Source: Anaerolineae bacterium (GTDB lineage: Bacteria; Chloroflexota; Anaerolineae; DRVO01). Taken from it: a stretch of 64,000 nucleotides of DNA. Location of the stretch: NCBI GenBank assembly GCA_050945695.1, contig JBMNTK010000001.1, positions 7,729 through 71,728 of the forward strand, given 5' to 3'. Each line of letters starts with the position of its first letter. Within the stretch, counting starts at the first letter, position 1. The notes beneath the pieces are model-generated. The model ran no database searches. It had not been told where the DNA came from and worked only from the letters and a program-made list of their open reading frames with translations. The translations under genes and the position numbers were made by a program. Below, piece by piece: positions 3,266 through 60,018 of the stretch.

Positions 3266-4234
3266 TCAGTTGGGGATGTGCTGCTTGCCCAACGATGGAT
3301 CGGTGGCGGTGGACGATGCCTCCGCTGCCTCGTCACTCTGCTGCGTCAAGTCCAGGAACAGGGACTCGAGGTCTGGCCGTGAGGTGGTGACCTCAGCCGG
3401 GACGATGCCATGGGCGGTCAGGTGCCGCACCACGCTCTCCGCCGGCACCCCGCTCACCTGTACGTAGCGGCCGTTTCCCTGAACTGCACTCACTCCGGGC
3501 AGGGTGCGGAGTGCCTGGGCGGCCGGTTCCGGCGCTGTCACCTGCACCTTCACTACTTCCTGGCTGTTCATCAGGTCCTCGACCGAGCCCTGGGCCACGA
3601 CGCGCCCGCGGTTCAGCACTGCCACCCGGTCGCAGACCTGCTCCACCTCGTGCAGGAGGTGGCTGCTCAGGAAGACGGTCATGCCCTCGGAGGCAAGCTG
3701 GCGCAGGAGCGTGCGCACGTCCCGCATGCCGGCGGGGTCCATGCCGTTGGTGGGCTCGTCCAGGATGAGCAGCTCCGGCCGGTGAAGCAGTGCCATGGCC
3801 AGGCCCAGTCGCTGCTTCATACCGGTGGAGTAGCGGCCGGCGGCCCGGTCGGCGGCCCCGCTGAGGCCCACCTGGGCCAGGACCTCGGCGATGCGCTCGT
3901 CGGTCACGCCCGGGTGGAGCCTCGCCAGCAGCTCCAGGTTCCTTCGGGCGGAGAGGTAGGGGACGATGGCCGGAGAGCCCACTAGAGCTCCCACCCTGCT
4001 CAAAGCCCGGGTACGCGACGGGGACACCCTCTCGCCAAACAGCCGGATCTCGCCCGCGGTGGGGTGGATGAGCCCCAGAAGCATTCCGATGGTGGTGGTC
4101 TTTCCGGCGCCGTTAGGGCCCAGGAAACCGAAGACCTCCGCCGGCTGCACCGACAACGAGATGCCGTCCACCGCCTTCAGCGGACCGAACGTCTTCCTGA
4201 GCTCCCTGATGTCTAGGACCGATGTATGAGCCAT
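3266..4234 (-). CDS. ABC transporter ATP-binding protein (ABC-2/drug-exporter type)
   Basis: Walker A GPNGAGKTTT, signature YSTGMKQRLGLAMAL, Walker B LLILDEPTNGMD. ATG at 4232-4234. Confidence 0.9.
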   Translation of the reverse strand: MAHTSVLDIRELRKTFGPLKAVDGISLSVQPAEVFGFLGPNGAGKTTTIGMLLGLIHPTAGEIRLFGERVSPSRTRALSRVGALVGSPAIVPYLSARRNLELLARLHPGVTDERIAEVLAQVGLSGAADRAAGRYSTGMKQRLGLAMALLHRPELLILDEPTNGMDPAGMRDVRTLLRQLASEGMTVFLSSHLLHEVEQVCDRVAVLNRGRVVAQGSVEDLMNSQEVVKVQVTAPEPAAQALRTLPGVSAVQGNGRYVQVSGVPAESVVRHLTAHGIVPAEVTTSRPDLESLFLDLTQQSDEAAEASSTATDPSLGKQHIPN

Positions 4235-5055: not shown

Positions 5056-5967
5056 TCACCCAACGGTGAACCGGGGCTCTCGCACTACCACCGTCCCCCC
5101 GTGCCAGTGGCTGGCGTTGGTTCCCCCGTAGCGGGTGTTATCCCCGAAGCAGAAGTGGCAAGTGCCACGCACTGCCTCGTCCTCCATGAGAACCCCGGAC
5201 GGCCGGGCCCCGCCATTGCCGCCAACACCCACCTCGGCCAGGCGGCGGTTGGCTTCACCCTCATCGAAGCGGCGCTCCATCTCCTCGACGTACATCCGGA
5301 AGAGCCGGTCGGTTGGGTCAGGGCAGCGCATAGAGACCAGCCGGCCTCCTTCTAGCTGCAGCTCTATGGGGGACGACACCAGCCCGTAGAAGACGCTCAG
5401 GTCGGCCACGATCACTCCCTCGGCCGACCCCTCCGCCGGGGCGGTGAGGACCTCGGTGAGCCCGCACAGCTGCCAGTCTCGGGAGCGGAAGGTAAGGTCG
5501 GTGCCACCGGGGGCGGTGACACGTACGGTGGTGGACTCCGGCAGGGTCTGCCGCAGGCTCTCAAGGTAAGCGCGGTCCTCTTGGGGGTCGGAGGCGTAGA
5601 TGCGCAGGAAGCTCTCTCGGGCTATGACCGTGTCAACGAAAAGGGGCGACGGGCGTACGTCGAGGCTGGGCTGGCCATCGCGCATGAGGAAGTAGCGGGC
5701 GAGGCCCTGCCGGGACCACATGGCGTGGGAGAGCAGGACTATGAGGCCGATGTTGGCGTCTGCGAATGCCTCCCTGACCGCGGGCGGCAAGTTGGGGGCA
5801 TCGTCGGGGACGAAAAGGAGCCTGGGGTGAGCGCCGCGCTCGCTCAGGCCCCGGGCCAGGGCCTCGGCTAGATCCGCCTTCTCTTGGGGGTAGACGATGG
5901 TGACCCGCTGGCCCGCCGGTGCCCGGAGGTGGTAGTCCAGGATGTTGGCGACGGCCTGCTGTATCAT
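5056..5967 (-). CDS. M29/AmpS-like aminopeptidase-family protein (short form); paralog of 36170..37135
   Basis: 303 aa; C-terminal GTCHFCFGDN...GGTNASHWH motif. Shares motif order with the protein at 36170..37135. Family assignment is tentative. Confidence 0.45.
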   Translation of the reverse strand: MIQQAVANILDYHLRAPAGQRVTIVYPQEKADLAEALARGLSERGAHPRLLFVPDDAPNLPPAVREAFADANIGLIVLLSHAMWSRQGLARYFLMRDGQPSLDVRPSPLFVDTVIARESFLRIYASDPQEDRAYLESLRQTLPESTTVRVTAPGGTDLTFRSRDWQLCGLTEVLTAPAEGSAEGVIVADLSVFYGLVSSPIELQLEGGRLVSMRCPDPTDRLFRMYVEEMERRFDEGEANRRLAEVGVGGNGGARPSGVLMEDEAVRGTCHFCFGDNTRYGGTNASHWHGGTVVVREPRFTVG

Positions 5968-5979
5968 CTCGGTGGGGAA

Positions 5980-6170
5980 GGGATATCACCGCAGAGACCG
6001 CTGAGATCGCGGAGGAAAGGAAAAACGGAAAGAGAGTCAGCAAAAGGTGAGGCGCCTGCGAATGCATGCTTCGCCTGTTCCACGGGCCAATCCCGTCCTT
6101 TCAGCCGCTCTTCCGCTCCCTTTCCTCTTCCCCTCTCTGCGCTCTCTGCGGTCTCTGCGGTGAATTCCCC
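5980..6170. mobile_element. MITE-like non-coding inverted-repeat element, copy 1 (~190 bp)
   Basis: Terminal inverted repeats gggatatcaccgcagagaccgc (5980-6001) and gcggtctctgcggtgaattcccc (6148-6170). Internal ctctgcg heptad tandem and hairpin gcgaatgcatgcttcgc. Second copy at 42144-42350. Confidence 0.6.
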
Positions 6171-6391
6171 TATATGCCTTTGAGGATGTTGCCCAGGGCG
6201 AGCACCGCGAAGGCGGCCGTGACCAGCCAGAAGGGACCGTCAGGCCCCAGGCCGACGTCCACCAGCCACGTTGCCACTCCCACCACTGCCAGCAGCAGCG
6301 ACAGATTCCAGGTTACTCGCTTGGGCGGGCTCAACTGCATCGCTGTCACCTCCCCACGTGTGTAGCGAGGGCAGGTGACAGCGATATCCAT
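6170..6391 (-). CDS. Small two-TM membrane protein (hypothetical), downstream of PspA
   Basis: 73-aa ORF (or 56 aa from MQLSPPKR) with two hydrophobic helices. No homology recognised and it overlaps the repeat element end, so low confidence. Confidence 0.3.
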   Translation of the reverse strand: MDIAVTCPRYTRGEVTAMQLSPPKRVTWNLSLLLAVVGVATWLVDVGLGPDGPFWLVTAAFAVLALGNILKGI

Positions 6392-7191: not shown

Positions 7192-7971
7192 CTAGAGGCC
7201 GCGGGCAAGCTCTCCCGCGGCTTCGGCGACGGCTTGCAGGCGCGCTGCCACCTGGGCCAGGTCACTCTCGCTCTGGCCGGCGGAGAGCGTCACCTGGGCC
7301 AGGCCCTCGCGGGCGGCCAGGACGGCCCCACTGAACCGGCCCAGCTTCTCCACCTCGCGCTCCACCGCCTCCTCCATGGCCGGGGTACGCACCCCCTGGG
7401 CCGACGCGGCAGCGGCGCTGGCAGCGGTGCGGGCCAGGGCAAGGCCGGCCTCCCGCAGGTCGTCGTGGACCCGATCCACCAGGGTGGAGGGGGCCCCGCT
7501 GGCGCGAGCAATGCCCGCCCCCTCGCGAAGGGCCGCCAGTTCGGAGGTGGCCCACAGGAGCTGCACCTTCAGCCGCTCGTAGGGCTCGCCGCTGATGGCG
7601 CCCTCGATCAGCCGGGCAGCCTCTGCCTGGCGCCCACGCTCCAAGCAGTCTCGGAGCCTCTCTTCGAAGGAAAGGCCCTCTCCGGGGCGGCCGATGCGGG
7701 TCCTCGGGTTGCCGAAGGTCTCGCCCATCCACCGGCCCACGGCCTGAGCTAGCCCCAGGATGGCGGTGGTGGAGAGTCCGGCGCCCAGGGCCACCCACCA
7801 TAGGGAGCGCAGGGCCACGGCCATGAGCAGGTAGATCAGGGGCGGCACCAGGGCGGCGATCACGCTCAGGCCCGGGCGGCGGTCCAGCCCTTCCAGCTCG
7901 CGGAACAGGCGCACCGAGCCCATCCATAGGAGCGTCGCTACCACTAAGTGATACAGTACCAGCAGGATCAC
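7192..7971 (-). CDS. Membrane-anchored coiled-coil protein (hypothetical), upstream of pspA in the same operon
   Basis: 259 aa; three N-terminal TM helices then an Ala/Glu-rich helical region; high GC3 coding bias. Confidence 0.5.
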   Translation of the reverse strand: MILLVLYHLVVATLLWMGSVRLFRELEGLDRRPGLSVIAALVPPLIYLLMAVALRSLWWVALGAGLSTTAILGLAQAVGRWMGETFGNPRTRIGRPGEGLSFEERLRDCLERGRQAEAARLIEGAISGEPYERLKVQLLWATSELAALREGAGIARASGAPSTLVDRVHDDLREAGLALARTAASAAAASAQGVRTPAMEEAVEREVEKLGRFSGAVLAAREGLAQVTLSAGQSESDLAQVAARLQAVAEAAGELARGL

Positions 7972-13367: not shown

Positions 13368-13413
13368 GCTCTCTCCCTCAAGGCAGGGCAGGGCGGGACG
13401 GATCCGTCCCGCC

Positions 13414-14743
13414 TCAGTCGGCGTCCGGGACCGGGGTAGCCTCGAGCTGCTCCTCCACTAGCTCTAGCCCGTCCTCTTGGAGCCGGTAGATCCGGGTGAC
13501 GGTCTGGCTAGGGCAGCACAAGGGGTCATCGGGCCCGGCGACTTTCATGATCACCGTTATTGTACCCTCTTCCACCCCGATGGACTGCACTTGCACCCGG
13601 TCCCCCAAGAAAGCCTGACCGGCCTGTTGGGGCTGGCCCTCGCGGTTGAGCATGGCCGCCAGGTAGTAGAAGCTTCCCGAGCCGCCCAGCTCCGTGGCTA
13701 TCACGGCCGCGGCATCATCCGCCCCGTCGCCGTCTAGGTCACCGAAGCCGGAGGCCTGGTAGAAGGCCCGATTGACCTCGGTGGCACCGGAGCCGTACTG
13801 GTCCTCGTAGCGGCCGGCGCGCAACTGGAAGGTGCCCAGGTCGGGCAGATCATACTCGGCGTTGGAGAGGTCATCCTCGGTGAGGGCCGTACCATCCATA
13901 TCGAGGAAAGTGGCCGTCTCGTTAGCGGCCCGGGAGATGAGCGCCATGACGTAGCCGTACACGGAGCGCAGCGTCGTCCCGTCCTCAGAGCGCAGGGTGC
14001 CGTCTTCGATCGTGTACTCGGTCACCACCGGCTCCTCGTAGACCTTGTCCTGCTGGCTGTTGAGCGTCACCTGGAGGGTATCGGGGCCGGTCGTCTCCCA
14101 GGTGCCTACCTCTTCGATCGGGGCCTCACCGTTGAGGAAGTCGGTCTTCTGGACGGCGATGCCATCAATCTGCAGGGACAAGGAGATGTCCCGAGCGCAG
14201 CAGGTGGCCGCAGGCAGGAACGCCTTGTAGATGTCGGCCAGCTCCCGCTCCATGCGCAGGGCGGCGGCCTCGGCGTCGTAGGGTATCTCCAGTTGGCCGG
14301 CAGCTAAGGCGCCCACCTCGTACCAGACCACTGGAAGCGCCCCAGCCTGGTCTTCGCCCCAGACGTGAGCCAGGGTGCCGTCTTCGGGCTGGAGGGTGAA
14401 GGCGGCGGGTTGCTCGTAGACCTGGCCGTCCTCGGAGCCGGTCAGCGTCAGGGTGACGGTGCCGTCCTGGGCCACGGTCCAGGTGCCCACCTCGGACAGA
14501 GGCGGCATTTCGTTGAGGTAGTCGTAGACCTGACGCGCGCTCCCATCGAAGTTGAGGTATAGGGTGGCGTCAATGCCAGGGCTGGAGGCGCCGGGCATGA
14601 TGGCCTTGTAGATCCCGACTACCTCGGGGGCCGCGTCGGGGGTGGGAGAGGCTGCCGGCGTTGGGGCGGTGCAGGCGGCCACCGCCAGGGCCAGGGCGAG
14701 CAGACCAATCCGGATAGCTGATCTTCGGGTATGGACGAACATG
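13414..14743 (-). CDS. Lipoprotein with tandem duplicated ~110-aa domain (hypothetical); first gene of the TCS operon
   Basis: Start at [24 protein letters not shown] (lipobox AVAAC). Two repeats beginning [24 protein letters not shown] / [24 protein letters not shown]. The ORF-track N-terminal extension runs into the repeat family and is spurious. Confidence 0.6.
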
Positions 14744-14869
14744 TTGACTCCTTTTGGGTCAAACGTCTCTACGTTGCCCAATGATAGGCGCCTGCCACCC
14801 CCTTGGCATCCCCGCTTGCGGGTACCCCGCCCTGCCAGGAACGGGTCAGCCGGGCTAACTGGGATTAGG

Positions 14870-15130
14870 TAGGCGGTGGGGATTGGCCACAGAGGCACGG
14901 AGACACAGAGGTGACACGTGACGAGTGACGCGTGACCGGCCACGACACCCACGCTACACGCCTGTGGGGGCGGACGACCCGGTCCGCCCTCAGGGGGCAC
15001 AACGAGTGCCAGTCCGGCGTCGGCCTTCGCCGACGCCCTGCCGAAGGCCCCTTAGCCCCGAATTCCATTCGCGAGCTCCGGCCGACCACAGATTCCTCGC
15101 TTCACTCGGAATGACAAGGAGAGGCGCTCG
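14870..15130. repeat. GC-rich mosaic REP-like repeat cluster (family B) copy
   Basis: ccacagaggcacggagacacagaggtgacacgtgac module plus hairpin gggcggacgacccggtccgccc and tcgcttcactcggaatgacaaggag module. Related copies at 19290-19460 and 59390-59900. Confidence 0.55.
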
Positions 15131-15569
15131 GGATGACGCACCGCCGAGGAGTCCGCATCCTCAGGCGCGGCTTCGCTGGCCCATCCTTGCGGCGTTGGCA
15201 TGGGATTCGCACGCAACTTGTGCTAGGCACGGCCTCGGGAGGGTACACTGTAGCCCTCATCGCCGGGGAAGCTCTCGCGCTTTGCTGCCCATCCCTTCGT
15301 CACTCCACCCTCGCTGCCACCGCCGGAGCGCCCATCGCCGGGTACGCCTCTTCGCCAGGCGCACCCTCCTCTCCGAGGCCCTGCCTGGATAGGGCGCCCT
15401 TGACGAGTGACAGTTATGTCTATATGATGCCCCGGCCTTGGGTAGGCCACCCCGACAGCCTCTGCGCCTTCGCCGCGCGGACGGTTGGGGGGTCCGGGGG
15501 AGCATCTCCGGCCATGTTCGCCTGAGTGCCGGTCGCCTGGGGCGCTGAGTCCGATACTGCAATCCGGGA

Positions 15570-18662: not shown

Positions 18663-18851
18663 ATGACCGATCTTAACAAGCTGGTGTATAAGGCAAGTAA
18701 AGGAGAGCTGCGCGTCGACGAACTGACCGAAGACGCAACTGCTCTCGCCCAGTTCGAGCTTTCGACTGAGGAGAAGGTGGCGCTGCAGCGTCACGTTCAG
18801 AGCGGCCAGTGGACGAACTTCGTCCCCAAGGCCGCCAGCGGCTGGATATAG
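18663..18851 (+). CDS. Small hypothetical protein (62 aa) in an AT-richer intergenic island
   Basis: RBS ggagtggaagggATG; MTDLNKLVYKASKGELRVDELTEDATALAQFELSTEEKVALQRHVQSGQWTNFVPKAASGWI. No Cys; atypical lower GC3 codon usage versus neighbours. Confidence 0.4.
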   Translation: MTDLNKLVYKASKGELRVDELTEDATALAQFELSTEEKVALQRHVQSGQWTNFVPKAASGWI

Positions 18852-19289
18852 GTCTGAACCAGCCTTCGCCAAGGGTGGGTTCACCGAACCCAAACCGAAC
18901 CGCAATCCTCCCACCCTGGAGATGACCTAGACCATCCAGCAGGGAGAGTGCCGAGCCCGGGCAGCACCGGACCGGCCTCGCCAACGACGGTACTATAGCA
19001 ATGCACCCGGGCCCCGGGGTTTGGCTGCCCTTCGCCTTAGTAGCCGACCCCAGCGCGCTTGAGCGTAGAGGCCACCCCGCCATGCCAACCGAACGGGCTG
19101 CCCGATCCTAGAGGGGCAGCCCGTCCCCTGTCCCGAACGCGCCGGGAATGATGACAAACACAGGAAGTCAGCTACTGCTTGCTTCCTTTCCACTCAAGGT
19201 AGCGAGGAGCGGATAAGGCGCCGTTCCTCGCTACCCTGCTTACGCCTCCGCTCCCCTGAGTAACCCCGGGCTGCCAACTTATGTCAAAC

Positions 19290-19460
19290 CGAGCGCATTG
19301 GCCGTCGAATCAACTCGGGGCTGTTGGGCTTTTGGCTGGGCGTCTTGCCCTCAGAGGGCGGACGGGGTCGTCCGCCCCTACCGGCGTGTGGCGTGTCACG
19401 AGTCACGTATCACCTCTGTGTCTCCGTGTCTCTGTGGCTAGTCCCCGCCTGGAGGCGGAA
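19290..19460. repeat. GC-rich mosaic REP-like repeat (family B) copy, inverted orientation
   Basis: gggcggacggggtcgtccgccc hairpin plus gtcacgagtcacgtatcacctctgtgtctccgtgtctctgtgg, the reverse complement of the 14880-14940 module. Confidence 0.55.
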
Positions 19461-22228: not shown

Positions 22229-22326
22229 TGTTTCACGTGAAACATCCACTGACCGGAGCGCCCCTCTTGGCACCCCCACGGTGACCGGGAGGGGAGCCGC
22301 GGCCAGCGCCTGTTTCACGTGAAACA
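22229..22326. promoter_or_regulatory. Two copies of a perfect 16-bp palindrome TGTTTCACGTGAAACA (22229-22244, 22311-22326), putative operator pair
   Basis: Exact identical palindromes 82 bp apart. The first is 12 bp after the UbiB stop; the second is 17 bp before the methyltransferase ATG. Confidence 0.5.
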
Positions 22327-22342
22327 AAGACCGGGAGAGACG

Positions 22343-28127: not shown

Positions 28128-28727
28128 TCAGCTCTCTAGGCGGGCCTGCGCCAGCTGGCGCAGGCGTTCTTCCGTCAGGCTGGCGCCGGTCAGGTCGAGC
28201 CCGCTCAGATCGAGCCCCTGCAGGTTGGCGCCCTCCTCAATGTGGGCCCCGGTCAGGTCAGAGCTCTCCAGGGTGGCTCCCTGGAGGTTGACCCGGCGGA
28301 GCACTGCCCCGGTCAGGTCGGCGCGGTGCAGGCTGGCCTCCTGGAGGTTGGCCTCGGGCATGATCGCGCCCGTGAGGTCGGCCCCGCTGAGGTTGGCGTC
28401 CTGGGCATTGACGCGCCGGAGATCCGCCCCCGTGAGGTCCGTCCCTCGCAGGTCGGCACCCTCGAAGTTGGCGTCCCGCAGGTTGGCCCCCGTGAAGTCT
28501 GCGCCCTCGAGCCTGGCCTCGCGGAGCCGTACTCCCTTGAGGTCCGCCCCGCTGACATCTCCCAGCTCGAGCCGCCGCCTGGTTGAAGCGGGGCCGCCAC
28601 GGCCCCGCCCAAGGGTGGGATCATCGGAGCGCCGATCCCCCAGGGCCTCGAGCAGCTCCTCGGCTTCGTCGGCGGTGATCCGGCCTTCTTCGAGCATTCG
28701 CAGTATCCGCATCCGCTCTTCGTTCAC
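28128..28727 (-). CDS. Pentapeptide-repeat protein with N-terminal SHOCT-like helix (EERMRILRMLEEGRITADEAEELLEAL)
   Basis: ~25 consecutive A(D/N)LxG pentapeptides (ADLKGVRLREARLEGADFTGANLRDANFEGADLRGTDLTGADL...); RBS ggaggg before the internal GTG. Confidence 0.8.
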   Translation of the reverse strand: MNEERMRILRMLEEGRITADEAEELLEALGDRRSDDPTLGRGRGGPASTRRRLELGDVSGADLKGVRLREARLEGADFTGANLRDANFEGADLRGTDLTGADLRRVNAQDANLSGADLTGAIMPEANLQEASLHRADLTGAVLRRVNLQGATLESSDLTGAHIEEGANLQGLDLSGLDLTGASLTEERLRQLAQARLES

Positions 28728-28749
28728 GCCTGTCCCTCCACCGACCACC

Positions 28750-29817
28750 TTACTGACCCTGGTGCCTCTCCCGAAGCGCGCGCACGGTCTCTGAGTTCAG
28801 GTGCATTCCGACCAGGCTGATGTCTTGTAAGTCCAGGCCGCTCAGATCGGCCCCTTCGGTAAAGACCGTGCCCATCAGGTCCGCGTCGGTGAGGTCTGCG
28901 CCCTGCAGGTTGGCCTTGGGCAGCACTGCCCCCATGAGGTTGGCGTCGGCCAGGATGGCACCCTGGAGGTTGGCCCCGGTGAGTATGGCTCCCATCAGGT
29001 TGGCGTCGCGCAGGTCGGCCCCTTCGAGGTTGGCGCCCTCCAGTATCGCTCCATAGAGGTTGGCGTCACGGAGGTCAGCGTTGCGCAGGTTAGCGCCCTT
29101 GAGGACTGCCCCTTCCAGGTTGGCGTCCTCGAGCCTGGCCCCATCGAGGATCGCGTCCATCAGGACGGCGCCCGCGAACTGCTGGGTGTTGCCCTGCCGG
29201 CGGGCCTCCCGGTCTAGCCGGGCGGCGAGGCGCTCCAGTTCGGCGGACAGGCGACGGAGCGCGGTCTCGATCTGGGGCTGGACGTCGCGCACCGTCTGCT
29301 CGGTAGCGTCCCGCACCGACTCCACCAGGCGGTCTACCTCGTCTCCTATGCGCCGCCCCTGCTCGGAGTCAACCGCATCGTTGATCGCCCGGCTGACTTG
29401 CTCGGCCAGCCTACTGGCCTCGATCTCGAAGGCCCTCCACCTCTCCGAGCTGAAGCCTGCCCGGACGGCCTCGCTGATGCTGGCGCCCAGGTTCTCCAGC
29501 TCCTCTTCCACCTCGCCCCAGGTAGCCTCGGCCCTTTTGCTGTCCTGGGCGCCAGGGGCCTCCTGCTGCTCAGTGGTGGGCTCGGCTTCCTGGATAGGGG
29601 TGGCGACGGGCTCGGGCTCCTGCACGGAGGGAGCGATGGGCTCGACTTCCGGCATAGGGGCAGCGGCTGCCTCAGTCAGCACCTGCGCCGCCGGCTGGTC
29701 CGGCTCCTGTGACAGCAGCGGCTCCTCGTCTAGGGCCTCCAGGAGACCGTTGGCCTCCTCGGTGCTGATCCTGCCCTCTTCCAACATCCTCAATACTCTC
29801 ATGCGCTCTTCGCTCAT
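28750..29817 (-). CDS. Pentapeptide-repeat protein with N-terminal SHOCT-like helix, acidic linker and coiled coil
   Basis: Start MSEERMRVLRMLEEGRISTEEANGLLEAL (RBS gggaggga). Pro/Glu-rich linker, coiled coil, then a pentapeptide array (ANLEGAVLKGANLRNADLRDANLYGAILEGANLEGADLRDANLMGAIL...). Confidence 0.8.
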   Translation of the reverse strand: MSEERMRVLRMLEEGRISTEEANGLLEALDEEPLLSQEPDQPAAQVLTEAAAAPMPEVEPIAPSVQEPEPVATPIQEAEPTTEQQEAPGAQDSKRAEATWGEVEEELENLGASISEAVRAGFSSERWRAFEIEASRLAEQVSRAINDAVDSEQGRRIGDEVDRLVESVRDATEQTVRDVQPQIETALRRLSAELERLAARLDREARRQGNTQQFAGAVLMDAILDGARLEDANLEGAVLKGANLRNADLRDANLYGAILEGANLEGADLRDANLMGAILTGANLQGAILADANLMGAVLPKANLQGADLTDADLMGTVFTEGADLSGLDLQDISLVGMHLNSETVRALRERHQGQ

Positions 29818-29971
29818 GGTCGTCCCTCCCGTCTCGGCCACTTCCGGCCCTATCACGCCTTCGCCCTGCACTCGCGACGCGGGGCGCTCGCCAACCAGGC
29901 GCTGCCATATCCCTCGAAAAGCTGATCCGCGCGAATTCAGAACCTCTGCCGCCATGCTGGCCTCTCCTTGC

Positions 29972-30376
29972 CTAACTCCGTCTACGCTCTGACCCCAGAG
30001 CCGAGAGGAGAGCAGCCGCTTCCTTGGCGTCCAACTCCCCCGCTTCTAGCTGGTCCAGGATCTCCTTGCGGCGCGCTGCCACCTCTTCTGCCGAGGGCGC
30101 ACCCTCGGCCTCGTCGTATCCCATCTCCTTGATCACCTCGCTGAGACGGGTGCGTAGTGTCCAGTAGGACTCACCCAGTTCTCGCTCCATCTCCCGCAGA
30201 TTGCCCCGGCGCCGGACGAAGGACTCCACGAACCGGAGGCTCTCCGGTGAGAGGTTGCCCAGGGCGCAGGGCTCATAGCGAGCCAGGATGACCGTCTCGC
30301 AGTCACAGCACTCCAGACGGGTTGCCTCCAACTTGCCGCCACAATTTGGGCACTTGGTCAACATGGTGCGTGCCAT
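29972..30376 (-). CDS. DUF2089-like zinc-ribbon/HTH protein with C-terminal SHOCT-like helix
   Basis: N-terminal CPNCGG...CCDC zinc ribbon, central helix-turn-helix, C-terminal RRKEILDQLEAGELDAKEAAALLSAL. RBS ggaggtga. Confidence 0.7.
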   Translation of the reverse strand: MARTMLTKCPNCGGKLEATRLECCDCETVILARYEPCALGNLSPESLRFVESFVRRRGNLREMERELGESYWTLRTRLSEVIKEMGYDEAEGAPSAEEVAARRKEILDQLEAGELDAKEAAALLSALGSERRRS

Positions 30377-34989: not shown

Positions 34990-35420
34990 GGCGGCAAGGG
35001 GGGGCAGGCGCCGGGGGCGAGGGTGTCGCTGCGGGTGAGAGTCGCCGGGGGCGAGGGTTTCGCCGGGGGCTGAACCCCCCGGCTACCTATGCGAAGCCGG
35101 CCCTTCGGCCGGCTGGTGAGGCCGTCGCAGGCACGGGATCCGCGGACAGGTGTAGGGGCGGACGGCCCCGTCCGCCCTTTGGGGCAGGCGCGGTGGCCTG
35201 CCCCTACATGGACGTTGACGGAGGCAGCAGGCGTCTCTAGGCGGCGGTCACGTCGGGGTAGGGGCGGCGCGAAGGGCGTTAGCCCGGAGCTCCGCCCGGG
35301 TTTCCTCAAATGCAGCGTGTCGAGTGTCGGCGAGGGGCGATGGGCGGGGCTTCGCCGGGCGAAAAGATGCCCGGCTTCGCTCCGCCCCTACCCGGACGTG
35401 GCCGGCCCCCGGACCCCCTC
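34990..35420. repeat. GC-rich mosaic REP-like repeat cluster (family B/C)
   Basis: Hairpins gccgggggctgaaccccccggc and gtaggggcggacggccccgtccgccc; module ggcaggcgcggtggcctgcccctac shared with 59700-59760 (reverse complement) and 49940-49975. Confidence 0.55.
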
Positions 35421-41145: not shown

Positions 41146-41179
41146 CAGATGACGCTGATCAGAGGATCAGCGTCATCTG
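41146..41179. terminator. Bidirectional stem-loop terminator between convergent genes
   Basis: Perfect 15-bp stem cagatgacgctgatc / gatcagcgtcatctg with a 4-nt loop agag, between the ABC permease stop (41129) and the SMP-30 stop (41197). Confidence 0.6.
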
Positions 41180-42060: not shown

Positions 42061-42143
42061 CGTATACCTCCTATCTTGACCTCTGCCGGCACCATGGTGA
42101 GTGCCGAGCCTATTATGCCACTGAGTCGGGGCTCCGGACAGTA

Positions 42144-42350
42144 CGGGGATCTCACCGCAGAGATCGCGGAGACCGCAGAGAGAACCAACTTAACCCCCCG
42201 TGCCCGCGCCATTTGGCCACGGCCAAATGGCGGACTTCCCTGCCAGGGAAGGGGGAGCCGAACTCCCCTCTCCCACACGTGGGAGAGGGGTCGGGGGTGA
42301 GGGCCTGCCATTTCCTTCCTTTCCTCTGCGGGCTCTGCGGTGAAATCCCC
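42144..42350. mobile_element. MITE-like non-coding inverted-repeat element, copy 2 (~207 bp)
   Basis: TIRs ggggatctcaccgcagag (42144-42161) and ctctgcggtgaaatcccc (42333-42350). Internal perfect palindromes ccatttggccacggccaaatgg and cccctctcccacacgtgggagagggg; ttcc-rich tract as in copy 1. Confidence 0.6.
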
Positions 42351-42434
42351 CTAGTTGAAGCCAAGGGACGCCGGTGTTAGCATCGAGTGACTCCGCGGCC
42401 GTCTAGCGGCGGCCGTTGTCCCCCGGGGGTGTGA

Positions 42435-49839: not shown

Positions 49840-49990
49840 AGGCAATCGGTGTGGGGCGGTGCGACGGGCTTCAGCCCGGAGCCCCGCCCTCTGCCTTTCG
49901 TAAAGGTACCTGCGGGGTGGGGCGTCGCCGGGGGGTTCAGCCCCCGGCGATGTCCTTGCCCCTACATAGACTCCGCCAGCGCCCTCACAT
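49840..49990. repeat. GC-rich mosaic REP-like repeat (family C) copy
   Basis: Hairpin cgccggggggttcagcccccggcg plus module ccttgcccctacatagac, related to 35045-35215. Confidence 0.5.
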
Positions 49991-59378: not shown

Positions 59379-59389
59379 GGGCTTGGGAA

Positions 59390-59900
59390 GTAGCCACAGA
59401 GACACGGTGACGAGTGGCACGTGACCCGTGAAGCGTGGCACGTGACCACCGCCACAACCCCATTGAGGAGTGCGCAACTAGGCGCACACTGGTGCGCCCA
59501 GGCCCCAGGCGCGCTTGGCCCATCCGGCGTCGGCGAAGGTGGGTCACGGCAAAGCAGTGACCACGTTCACAGCTCTGCTGTGAAACCTGGACGCCCGGCC
59601 GAAGGCCCAGCAGCCCCGACTTGAGTCGAGGGCTCTGCTGTCGCACTGGTGGGGGCGTGTGGCAGCGGGCGCATTAAGCCACCCACGAGGTCCGGGTAGG
59701 GGCAGGCCACCGCGCCTGCCCCCAAAGGGCGGGCGGCCCCGCCCGCCCCTACCGGCGCGCATGCCTCGGGGGAACTGTCATTCCGAGCGAAGCGAGGAAT
59801 CTCTGCCTGCCGGAAGGGGTAGATCCCTCGCTTCGCTCGGGATGACAAGGAGGTTGCGCCGGTCATGCCGAAACCATTGCGCGCCTCGGGGCGCGCACCC
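59390..59900. repeat. GC-rich mosaic REP-like repeat cluster (family B/C)
   Basis: ccacagagacacggtgacgagtggcacgtgac module (compare 14880, 19400); ggtaggggcaggccaccgcgcctgcccc (reverse complement of the 35170 module); gtcattccgagcgaagcgagg / cctcgcttcgctcgggatgacaaggag inverted pair (compare 15090). Confidence 0.55.
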
Positions 59901-60018
59901 CTCAATTGGGCGTGTAGCGCCAAGTCACGGGTCACGCATCTCGCCTCAACCGGAGCGAGTTGCGGGTGGTGGCACCAGCCCTTCCCTGTGTTATACTCTG
60001 ATAATAGGCACCCCAAAC

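Follow-up and report, generated by a model that had tools for sequence, protein, structure and literature searches.

Repetitive extragenic palindromic (REP) sequences of the GTAG superfamily combine an unpaired GTAG (sometimes GTGG) head with a 5-13-bp stem and a 2-20-nt loop, and they occur frequently as head-to-head dimers and in clusters (PMC3733652). Their hosts include members of the Chloroflexi (C. aggregans, T. roseum GTAG-23; Di Nocera 2013, PMC3733652). The CGTC superfamily is characterized by an unpaired CGTC tag, with TGTC and CCTC variants, and a stem of 8-9 bp that opens with AT and carries a 4-5-nt loop; the tail has 3 nt and in most cases reads CCA. Its members, among them Neisseria dRS3 and Rickettsia RPE-6 (CGTC-1) and RPE-4 (CGTC-4), are found mainly as head-to-head dimers and have no associated transposase (PMC3733652). 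Here we analyzed a 64,000-nt stretch of the genome of an Anaerolineae bacterium of the Chloroflexota (contig JBMNTK010000001.1), referred to as the window, in which five intergenic spacers (loci 1 to 5) are filled with a patchwork of small repeats, mostly hairpin-forming. With a probability of about 0.72, these loci are mosaic islands similar to the bacterial interspersed mosaic elements (BIMEs), i.e., selfish, non-autonomous REP-type DNA that accretes in permissive spacers; the GTAG-tagged units would be copied by a REP-associated tyrosine transposase (RAYT) and the TGTC-tagged units by some further activity. As in E. coli BIMEs and Neisseria mosaic intergenic regions, short modules are combined in variable order and orientation between genes, although the module sequences are different. 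E. coli BIMEs bind the host factors IHF, gyrase and Pol I.

The islands are composed of the following modules:

Module A: GGGGAT-N3 followed by (CACNGAGN)x3 and (GTGACNN)x3-4, not palindromic; 14875-14941 (+), 19383-19449 (-) and 59384-59455 (+).
Module B: GTAGGGGC, stem, 4-6-nt loop, stem; at 14964, 19355, 35152/35181 and 59696/59727; at each of the latter two sites, two neighboring units are inverted relative to each other and their GTAG tags face outward.
Module C: CTCCT-TGTC-ATTCC-GA-GC-GAA-GC-GA-GGAAT-CT; 15090-15116 (-) and an inverted pair at 59776-59847.
Module D: GTAG-tagged GCCGGGGG-CTGAA-CCCCCGGC; 35058-35086 and 49924-49966.
Module E: GT(A/G)GGGGCGG.GCGA.GGGC-TTCA-GCCC.GGAGC.CCGCCC; 35258-35297 and 49851-49889.
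Module F: GACGCCC..GCCGAAGGCCC..AGCCCCGA, a shared block at 15032, 19301 and 59590.

The strings quoted in the initial annotation were all present at the loci given for them, and its view that the matches exceed the high-GC background (the G+C content of the window is 62-71%) was confirmed by self-BLAST and repeat finding, which link all five loci with E values of 1e-4 to 7e-14. In shuffle controls, GTAGGGGCRG was matched seven times against 0.64 expected, with 7/7 matches inside loci 2, 3 and 5, while the 27-mer core of module A was matched twice and the module C 27-mer three times, each against 0 expected. The long matches comprise CCACAGAG(G/A)CACGGAGACACAGAGGTGA(C/T)ACGTGAC at 14887-14922 (+) and 19402-19437 (-); GGGCGGACG-N4-CGTCCGCCC, found at 19355-19381, at 35152-35177 and, in degenerate form, at 14964-14989; GCCGGGGGCTGAACCCCCCGGC at 35060-35083, whose reverse complement at 49927-49950 is identical in 24/24 positions; GGCAGGCGCGGTGGCCTGCCCCTAC at 35181-35207, with its reverse complement at 59696-59722; and TCGCTTCGCTCGGGATGACAAGGAG at 59828-59852, with a variant at 15097-15121. 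A contig from the Joint Genome Institute (JGI) spans island 5 without gaps, and Logan contigs of other runs span locus 2. Since these independent contigs carry the repeats at 99.8-100% identity, the repeats are not assembly artefacts. Logan short-read contigs of different runs end inside the islands, at 15042 (two), 19355 (two), 19368 (one) and 59506 (four), which is the behavior expected of multi-copy repeats in de Bruijn assemblies; these breaks within units suggest that more copies exist elsewhere in the genome.

Instead of the one repeat family proposed initially, at least three unrelated kinds of repeat with very different phylogenetic ranges share the islands. The description as REP-like, mosaic and intergenic is borne out for the hairpin modules, which show the tag, the stem-loop and head-to-head dimers, and by structure prediction the dimers of module B (z -4.65 to -5.2) and of module C (z -7.5) fold much better than shuffles. 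Module A, to which the first quoted string belongs, is non-palindromic and folds no better than shuffles (DNA fold z -1.3 and -0.8). The modules do form a mosaic, but the claim that they are combined differently at each locus needs correction, as loci 1 and 2 contain a collinear A-B-F composite of ~190 nt (82-88% identity) in opposite orientation. The peptide VTCHLCVSVPLWP, reported as common to two spurious frames, is present only in the 13414..15000 open reading frame (ORF); the 19324 frame reads VTYHLCVSVSLWL, and only HLCVSV is shared.

The GTAG-type units of the window and their surroundings are as follows:

14964..14989 (+): module B at locus 1, a degenerate, GTGG-tagged REP, GTGGGGGCGGACGACCCGGTCCGCCC.
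19355..19381 (-): module B at locus 2, GTAG-tagged REP GTAGGGGCGGACGACCCCGTCCGCCCT.
35058..35086 (-): module D at locus 3, GTAGCCGGGGGGTTCAGCCCCCGGCG; a 34-nt tandem repeat in two copies (34999-35066) precedes it.
35152..35207: module B head-to-head dimer at locus 3, GTAGGGGCGGACG..CGTCCGCCC then GGGGCAGGC..GCCTGCCCCTAC, GTAG tags outside; 91% identity to the reverse complement of 59696-59752; DNA fold -24.2 kcal/mol, z -5.2.
35240..35409: inverted pair of GTAGGGGCGG(C/A)GCGAAG arms at locus 3, arms 100 nt apart, enclosing module E (35258-35297).
49851..49889 (+): module E at locus 4, a GTGG-tagged long hairpin 30 nt past the epimerase stop codon; 86% identity to 35261-35297; fold -14.7 kcal/mol, z -2.2.
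49924..49966 (-): module D at locus 4, GTAGGGGCAAGGACATCGCCGGGGGCTGAACCCCCCGGCGAC, abutting the ferredoxin gene stop codon; 87% complementary to 35048-35086; fold -19.7 kcal/mol, z -4.7.
59696..59752: module B head-to-head dimer at locus 5; fold -24.9 kcal/mol, z -4.65.

Judged by sequence, modules B, D and E are GTAG-tagged REPs in which all published sequence features are found. Each of the seven GTAGGGGCRG heads is followed by a 9-11-bp stem with a 4-6-nt loop; at 14964 and 49851 the head is of the GTGG type. The stems GGCGGACG, GGCAGGC and GGCGGGCG are each paired by their own complement. The 64 kb of the window hold 7-10 copies of the GTAG type. In common with described GTAG REPs and REPINs, the three modules have an unpaired GTAG/GTGG head, a 9-12-bp G+C stem and a 4-6-nt loop, form head-to-head dimers, cluster in blocks and lie between genes. 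In contrast, their stems are lineage-specific, and the units are embedded in larger composites such as A-B-F. Hairpins with GTAGGGGC and other stems were also detected in other Chloroflexota, in Acidobacteriota and in viral loci (17 copies versus 1 in the reversed-sequence control). The isolated palindrome at 19199-19234, GTAGCGAGGAGCGG...CCGTTCCTCGCTAC, has GTAG on both strands.

GTAG-tagged REPs and REPINs are mobilised by RAYTs, as Nunvar in 2010 and Bertels and Rainey in 2011 reportedly found. By analogy with such REP/RAYT systems, modules B, D and E would most likely be copied via a single-stranded DNA (ssDNA) hairpin, in which case a RAYT (HUH/Y1 transposase) encoded elsewhere in the genome would recognize the hairpin and cut near the GTAG tag; it is from this analogy that we infer an ssDNA/HUH copying mechanism. 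On the BIME-like reading of the islands, several kinds of small hairpin-forming repeats have accumulated beside and within one another in permissive intergenic spacers, and module A would be a lineage-variable octamer/heptamer array traveling with the hairpins. No RAYT was found in the window with a hidden Markov model (HMM) built from 16 published RAYT/TIRYT sequences, and the same model gave no match in 726 kb from relatives. A search for RAYT homologues returned mostly 70-130-aa fragments, none of them from this metagenome-assembled genome (MAG). The Pfam scan of the ~45 window genes likewise revealed no transposase, integrase, RAYT or HUH domain, and the modules are therefore non-autonomous. 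Within the Chloroflexota, Roseiflexus Rcas_2775 is listed as a RAYT and is included in the supplementary alignment of PMC3733652. In Roseiflexus castenholzii, GTAGGGGCAGGTCCCCGTGCCTGCCCC ends a few nucleotides before the annotated start of Rcas_2775, whose annotated N-terminus GRPQGVAPT is a translated REP; the Roseiflexus sequence and GTAGGGGCAGGCCACCGCGCCTGCCCC of the window have the same head and stem.

Locus 1 is a spacer between divergent genes, loci 2 and 4 are spacers between convergent genes, and loci 3 and 5 lie in tandem gene pairs, downstream of one gene. The hairpins could have evolved locally as terminators or 3'-end mRNA stabilisers, their shared sequence reflecting a common functional consensus; the placement of loci 2 to 5 agrees with this explanation, and so does the high stability of the hairpins. 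We nevertheless consider it unlikely, because blocks of 30-75 nt are 82-100% identical, including non-pairing flanks and loops, at unlinked loci and in both orientations, because locus 1 lies between divergent genes, and because a scan of the 14-20 kb region of the window detected no U-tract terminator. At loci 2-5, where the position fits, the units may plausibly serve in addition as 3' hairpins of transcripts; the position of locus 1 does not fit such a use.

Comparison with relatives further bears on this alternative. In a bioreactor-metagenome contig (L128; ~80% aa identity, 67% G+C), the genes from the epimerase gene via SurE as far as YbbR are arranged exactly as in the window. Between sugT and argF, the spacer of this contig measures 74 nt versus 640 nt in the window, with the argF promoter-like box TGnTATACT kept in both, and at the position of locus 4 the contig carries a plain hairpin in place of modules D and E, which is compatible with a function at the 3' end. 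In a second MAG (L237), the histidine kinase is 77% identical to that of the window and the adjoining NlpE-like gene is shared; the sequences next to the kinase gene align over 258 nt at 66%, yet the locus 1 island is missing. At loci 1 and 5, the islands exceed the corresponding spacers of the relatives in length by 200-570 nt, which argues against locally evolved terminators. A BLAST search with every island yielded one short match in 726 kb from 80 relatives. The comparison of spacers covered loci 1, 4 and 5, and at locus 4 the difference from L128 lies in what the spacer contains. As the orthologous spacers lack them, the islands at loci 1 and 5 are lineage-specific additions and not conserved regulatory DNA.

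The relatives carry GTAG and TGTC hairpin variants of their own. The second MAG has TGTC-tagged hairpins, TGTCATCCCTGTCGCAGGGACGAAT and TGTCATCCCCTCGTAGGGGCGAATC, at ~13370-13560, with the tag kept and the stems different. The stretch of the window that aligns with this MAG (15188-15445, corresponding to 7629-7873 of the same spacer there) is non-coding and located upstream of the hybrid histidine kinase gene, and its conservation suggests that it could be a leader or regulatory region.

Modules A and F and the associated arrays comprise the following features:

14875..14941 (+): module A at locus 1, GGGGATTGG + (CACNGAGN)x3 + (GTGACNN)x4; 82% identity to the reverse complement of 19383-19449.
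19383..19449 (-): module A at locus 2, starting 16 nt past the stop codon of the Fur gene.
59384..59455 (+): module A at locus 5, starting 6 nt past the sugar-transferase stop; 72-76% identity to the copies of loci 1 and 2.
15032..15064 (+): module F at locus 1, matching 59590-59622 (85%) and the reverse complement of 19312-19344 (79%).
19301..19344 (-): module F at locus 2; 84% identity to the reverse complement of 59590-59633.
59590..59633 (+): module F at locus 5.
59460..59940: outer weak inverted repeats of island 5, CCATTGAGGAGTGCGC, 59460-59480 versus 59886-59910, as read from the sequence.
59408-59447 versus 59915-59940: GTGAC heptamers of the outer inverted repeats of island 5, also read from the sequence.

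Two further elements of the window, at 5975-6172 and 42142-42353, are hairpins of ~200 nt that resemble miniature inverted-repeat transposable elements (MITEs) and have inverted ends of 40-60 nt consisting of GGGRATNTCAC, (CGCNGAGAN)x3 and a purine tract. The module A octamer C-R-C-N-G-A-G-N is of the same type as these ends. Arrays of the module A type were found in Acidobacteriota and viral loci bearing module C (19 versus 0 in the control), in one case (L075) 17 nt from a C unit, and tandem arrays of 6-9-nt repeats lie within 150 nt of 17/130 C units, compared with 7% of random positions. Heterocystous cyanobacteria contain tandemly repeated heptanucleotides, the STRR sequences, which Mazel and colleagues reportedly described in 1990. 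Module A and, in other phyla, the arrays next to module C are likewise 7-8-nt intergenic tandem repeats with lineage-specific units; in contrast to STRR, they comprise just 3-4 copies and have a physical link to REP-type hairpins. The resemblance is a lead only.

Module C is present at two loci of the window:

15088..15138 (-): module C at locus 1, the full unit 15090-15116 and a partial direct copy, CGTCATCCCGAGCG (15125-15138), 22 nt away.
59775..59852: module C head-to-head dimer at locus 5, TGTCATTCCGAGCGAAGCGAGGAATCT, an 18-nt spacer and AGATCCCTCGCTTCGCTCGGGATGACA.

Its conserved core is a 21-nt hairpin in which a covarying stem of 5 bp is followed by a tandem G.A/A.G pair, by 2 bp of further stem and, at the tip, by a G-N-A triloop. 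Altogether, the stem covers nine positions and begins AT...AT, with the G.A/A.G tandem at positions 6-7, leaving seven Watson-Crick pairs. The dimer at 59775-59852 folds with ~-28 kcal/mol (z -7.5 on both strands), and its two arms differ by a compensatory change of T-A to C-G.

The distribution of module C was determined in one genome per GTDB species with the pattern GTCANNCCGAGYGAAGCGAGGNNTC, and in IMG/VR. Matches were obtained in at least 120 stretches of species-representative genomes from at least 11 phyla (hosts assigned by record title) and on 22 viral contigs. Among the matches listed, most hosts are Acidobacteriota (~65), followed by Chloroflexota (~17), Gemmatimonadota and Pseudomonadota (~11 each), Bacteroidota (6), Planctomycetota (4), Armatimonadota and Patescibacteria (3 each) and Nitrospirota, Verrucomicrobiota and Desulfobacterota (2 each). 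At the positions left free by the pattern, 73 copies have TT/AA, 51 TC/GA and one CC/GG, while five are non-pairing. The species-genome loci contain 65 extra copies outside the search pattern, versus 1 in the reversed-sequence control, with the stems ATTCT/AGAAT, ATCCT/AGGAT, ATTTC/GAAAT, ATGCC/GGCAT, ATGTC/GACAT and ACCTC/GAGGT; the inner pair can be AC..GT instead of GC..GC, and the central position of the loop varies freely. Across 64 distinct sequences, 94.2% of cells are paired, 7/7 pairs show double-sided changes and 58 cells are compensatory, a level of pairing that was reached by 0/500 shuffles and compares with 9-52% in slid controls. The positions of the G.A/A.G tandem and the loop G (53/64) and A (59/64) are nearly invariant. 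The hairpins of the islands are structurally constrained. In module C, conservation is restricted to 27 nt, with random flanks; among 122 copies of other genomes, 86% have a T directly before GTC, and 43% of the units have an inverted partner 15-50 nt downstream, with the tags outside.

Strong covariation and conservation across phyla would also be expected if the islands encoded small structured RNAs, or a regulatory RNA acting in cis, that contain a conserved hairpin motif. This is, however, very improbable, given that Rfam 15 returned zero matches at gathering thresholds (only chance matches to miRNA hairpins, at E up to 5, were seen), that module C is tied to no gene family and that its units occur in both orientations relative to neighboring genes. 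Wobble pairs show no strand preference either (G.T 9 versus A.C 15), and the flanks are unconserved past the 27 nt. The placement of module C in other genomes recalls the terminator or stabiliser alternative, as the copies lie mostly in tandem (50) or convergent (18) and rarely in divergent (7) spacers, with a median distance of 73 nt to the end of the upstream gene; but single units are only weakly oriented (24 versus 13, from crude gene calls).

Several features of module C are reminiscent of cut-and-paste transposition. The modules could be MITEs, i.e., deleted derivatives of DDE transposons, with TGTC...GACA and GGGGAT..(CNCNGAGN)n as terminal inverted repeats and the 22-nt partial repeats as arrayed transposase-binding sites. 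In favor of this, the two units of the C dimers are inverted and terminate in TGTCA/TGACA, the terminus is partially repeated with a period of 17-22 nt in 16/122 units, strikingly so in one phage-like contig (L227), and the ~200-nt hairpins at 5975-6172 and 42142-42353 have A-type inverted ends. We regard this explanation as quite improbable, since the inspected copies lack a target-site duplication, no transposase was found between or beside inverted units in the 120 listed genome loci and the 22 viral loci, and none of the loci retrieved contains an autonomous partner element. Moreover, the positions covary inside one and the same arm; this points to a hairpin formed by one strand, for which a terminal repeat acting as double-stranded DNA would have no need, and ~57% of the units have no partner arm within ~90 nt. 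Two other assignments of module C were rejected. The idea that it is the terminal repeat of the acidobacterial Y1 transposases associated with terminal inverted repeats was discarded, since in L082, the one case read in detail, the Y1 gene is flanked by a different palindrome, GCGGCGCTTAAGCGCCGC, and a hammerhead-like reading of the core was dismissed on inspection, as the CUGANGA box is absent.

The described family closest to module C is the CGTC superfamily, with which it shares the (C/T)GTC tag, the AT-initiated stem, the head-to-head dimers, the lack of an associated transposase and the spread over several phyla. The tag is TGTC in the three full units and canonical CGTC in the partial copy at 15125-15138. 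The outer arms GTCATTCC...GGAATC are like those of CGTC-1, for which the published peptide VIPAKAGI back-translates to GTCATTCCCGCGAAAGCGGGAATC. In contrast to the superfamily, the module C stem is broken by the conserved G.A/A.G tandem, the loop is a 3-nt G-N-A instead of 4-5 nt, and the tail is CT and not CCA, with nothing conserved past it. In addition, Acidobacteriota, Chloroflexota, Gemmatimonadota, Planctomycetota, Armatimonadota, Patescibacteria and others are missing from the published list of CGTC hosts (PMC3733652). Because of the G.A tandem, the GNA loop, the different tail and the hosts outside the published list, module C is here regarded as a relative of the CGTC/TGTC superfamily and not as a strict member. 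A full-text literature search by sequence and peptide retrieved no description of the module strings or translated peptides, and in BLASTN searches island 5 had no match among 72,556 plasmids, while the C dimer had only insignificant matches among 50,697 phage genomes.

The layout of locus 1, with partial repeats at 17-22 nt, is also present in other phyla. In the phage-like contig L227 (IMG/VR, 45% G+C), one composite occurs three times (3985-4130, 5385-5575 and 7560-7640), always between co-directional genes; it consists of a TGTC hairpin dimer, then 20-22-nt partial repeats of the GGATGACA end, then (ATTATTC)x4. The partial-repeat layout at 15090-15138 of the window matches this composite. 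Tentatively, the TGTC hairpin may be the recognition core of an undescribed, cross-phylum, non-autonomous family that includes the 20-22-nt partial repeats and the 7-8-mer arrays and is spread by an enzyme acting on ssDNA, a possibility to which we give rather less than even odds.

Several observations weigh against the interpretation of the islands as BIME-like accretions of selfish REP-type DNA. Module A is unstructured. Taken alone, a C unit folds weakly by nearest-neighbor prediction (-2.7 kcal/mol, z -0.6); GNA loops and sheared G.A pairs receive no credit in models of this kind. Module C has no known mobilising enzyme, and no gene family recurs beside it in the 120 listed loci, where ORF clustering recovered ubiquitous families only (response regulators, ABC ATPases, short-chain dehydrogenases/reductases); Y1 transposases were found near it in just 2/120 genome loci and 2/22 viral loci. 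Rcas_2775 is a truncated RAYT remnant, so that the REP-RAYT link in the Chloroflexota is indirect. No insertion polymorphism was detected among near-identical strains, and the module counts and the RAYT search of this genome cover the 64-kb window only.

The genes of the window are ordinary chromosomal genes coding for two-component kinases, ABC transporters, glutamyl-tRNA synthetase, Fur, ornithine carbamoyltransferase and sugar transferases. In the 13414..15000 ORF the first ~85 codons are spurious, as read from the sequence, and the real start is likely the ATG at 14745, which is preceded by the putative ribosome-binding site AAAGGAG. A 62-aa ORF just 3' of the histidine kinase gene (18663-18851, +) was also called in two independent assemblies (L231 and L232), and an ORF of equal length and position was called in the second MAG (L237); it has no Pfam match. 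Between the UbiB-like and methyltransferase genes, a perfect 16-bp palindrome, TGTTTCACGTGAAACA, occurs twice (22229-22245 and 22311-22327), 82 nt apart, and the pair looks like a paired operator for a dimeric regulator. A gene trio at 28128-30376 (-) encodes a DUF2089 helix-turn-helix/zinc-ribbon protein along with two pentapeptide-repeat proteins whose N-termini are SHOCT-like. Among the direct repeats detected in the window, those coding for the pentapeptides dominate. Isolated palindromes were found just after the response-regulator gene (13392-13413, a perfect 22-nt palindrome) and between convergent genes (41146-41179, 34 nt).

Overall, the feature is for the most part ordinary, with one under-described cross-phylum hairpin family, module C. 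For this Chloroflexota genome the finding is mostly housekeeping, as the islands account for long spurious ORFs, over-long gene calls such as 13414..15000 and breaks in short-read contigs, and they mark lineage-specific DNA that is usable for strain typing. Module C, with its occurrence in at least 120 species and at least 11 phyla, is a clean marker to correlate with gene content in the search for the mobilising enzyme. If the TGTC hairpin is indeed the recognition core of such a family, the enzyme behind it would answer how CGTC-type REPs propagate.

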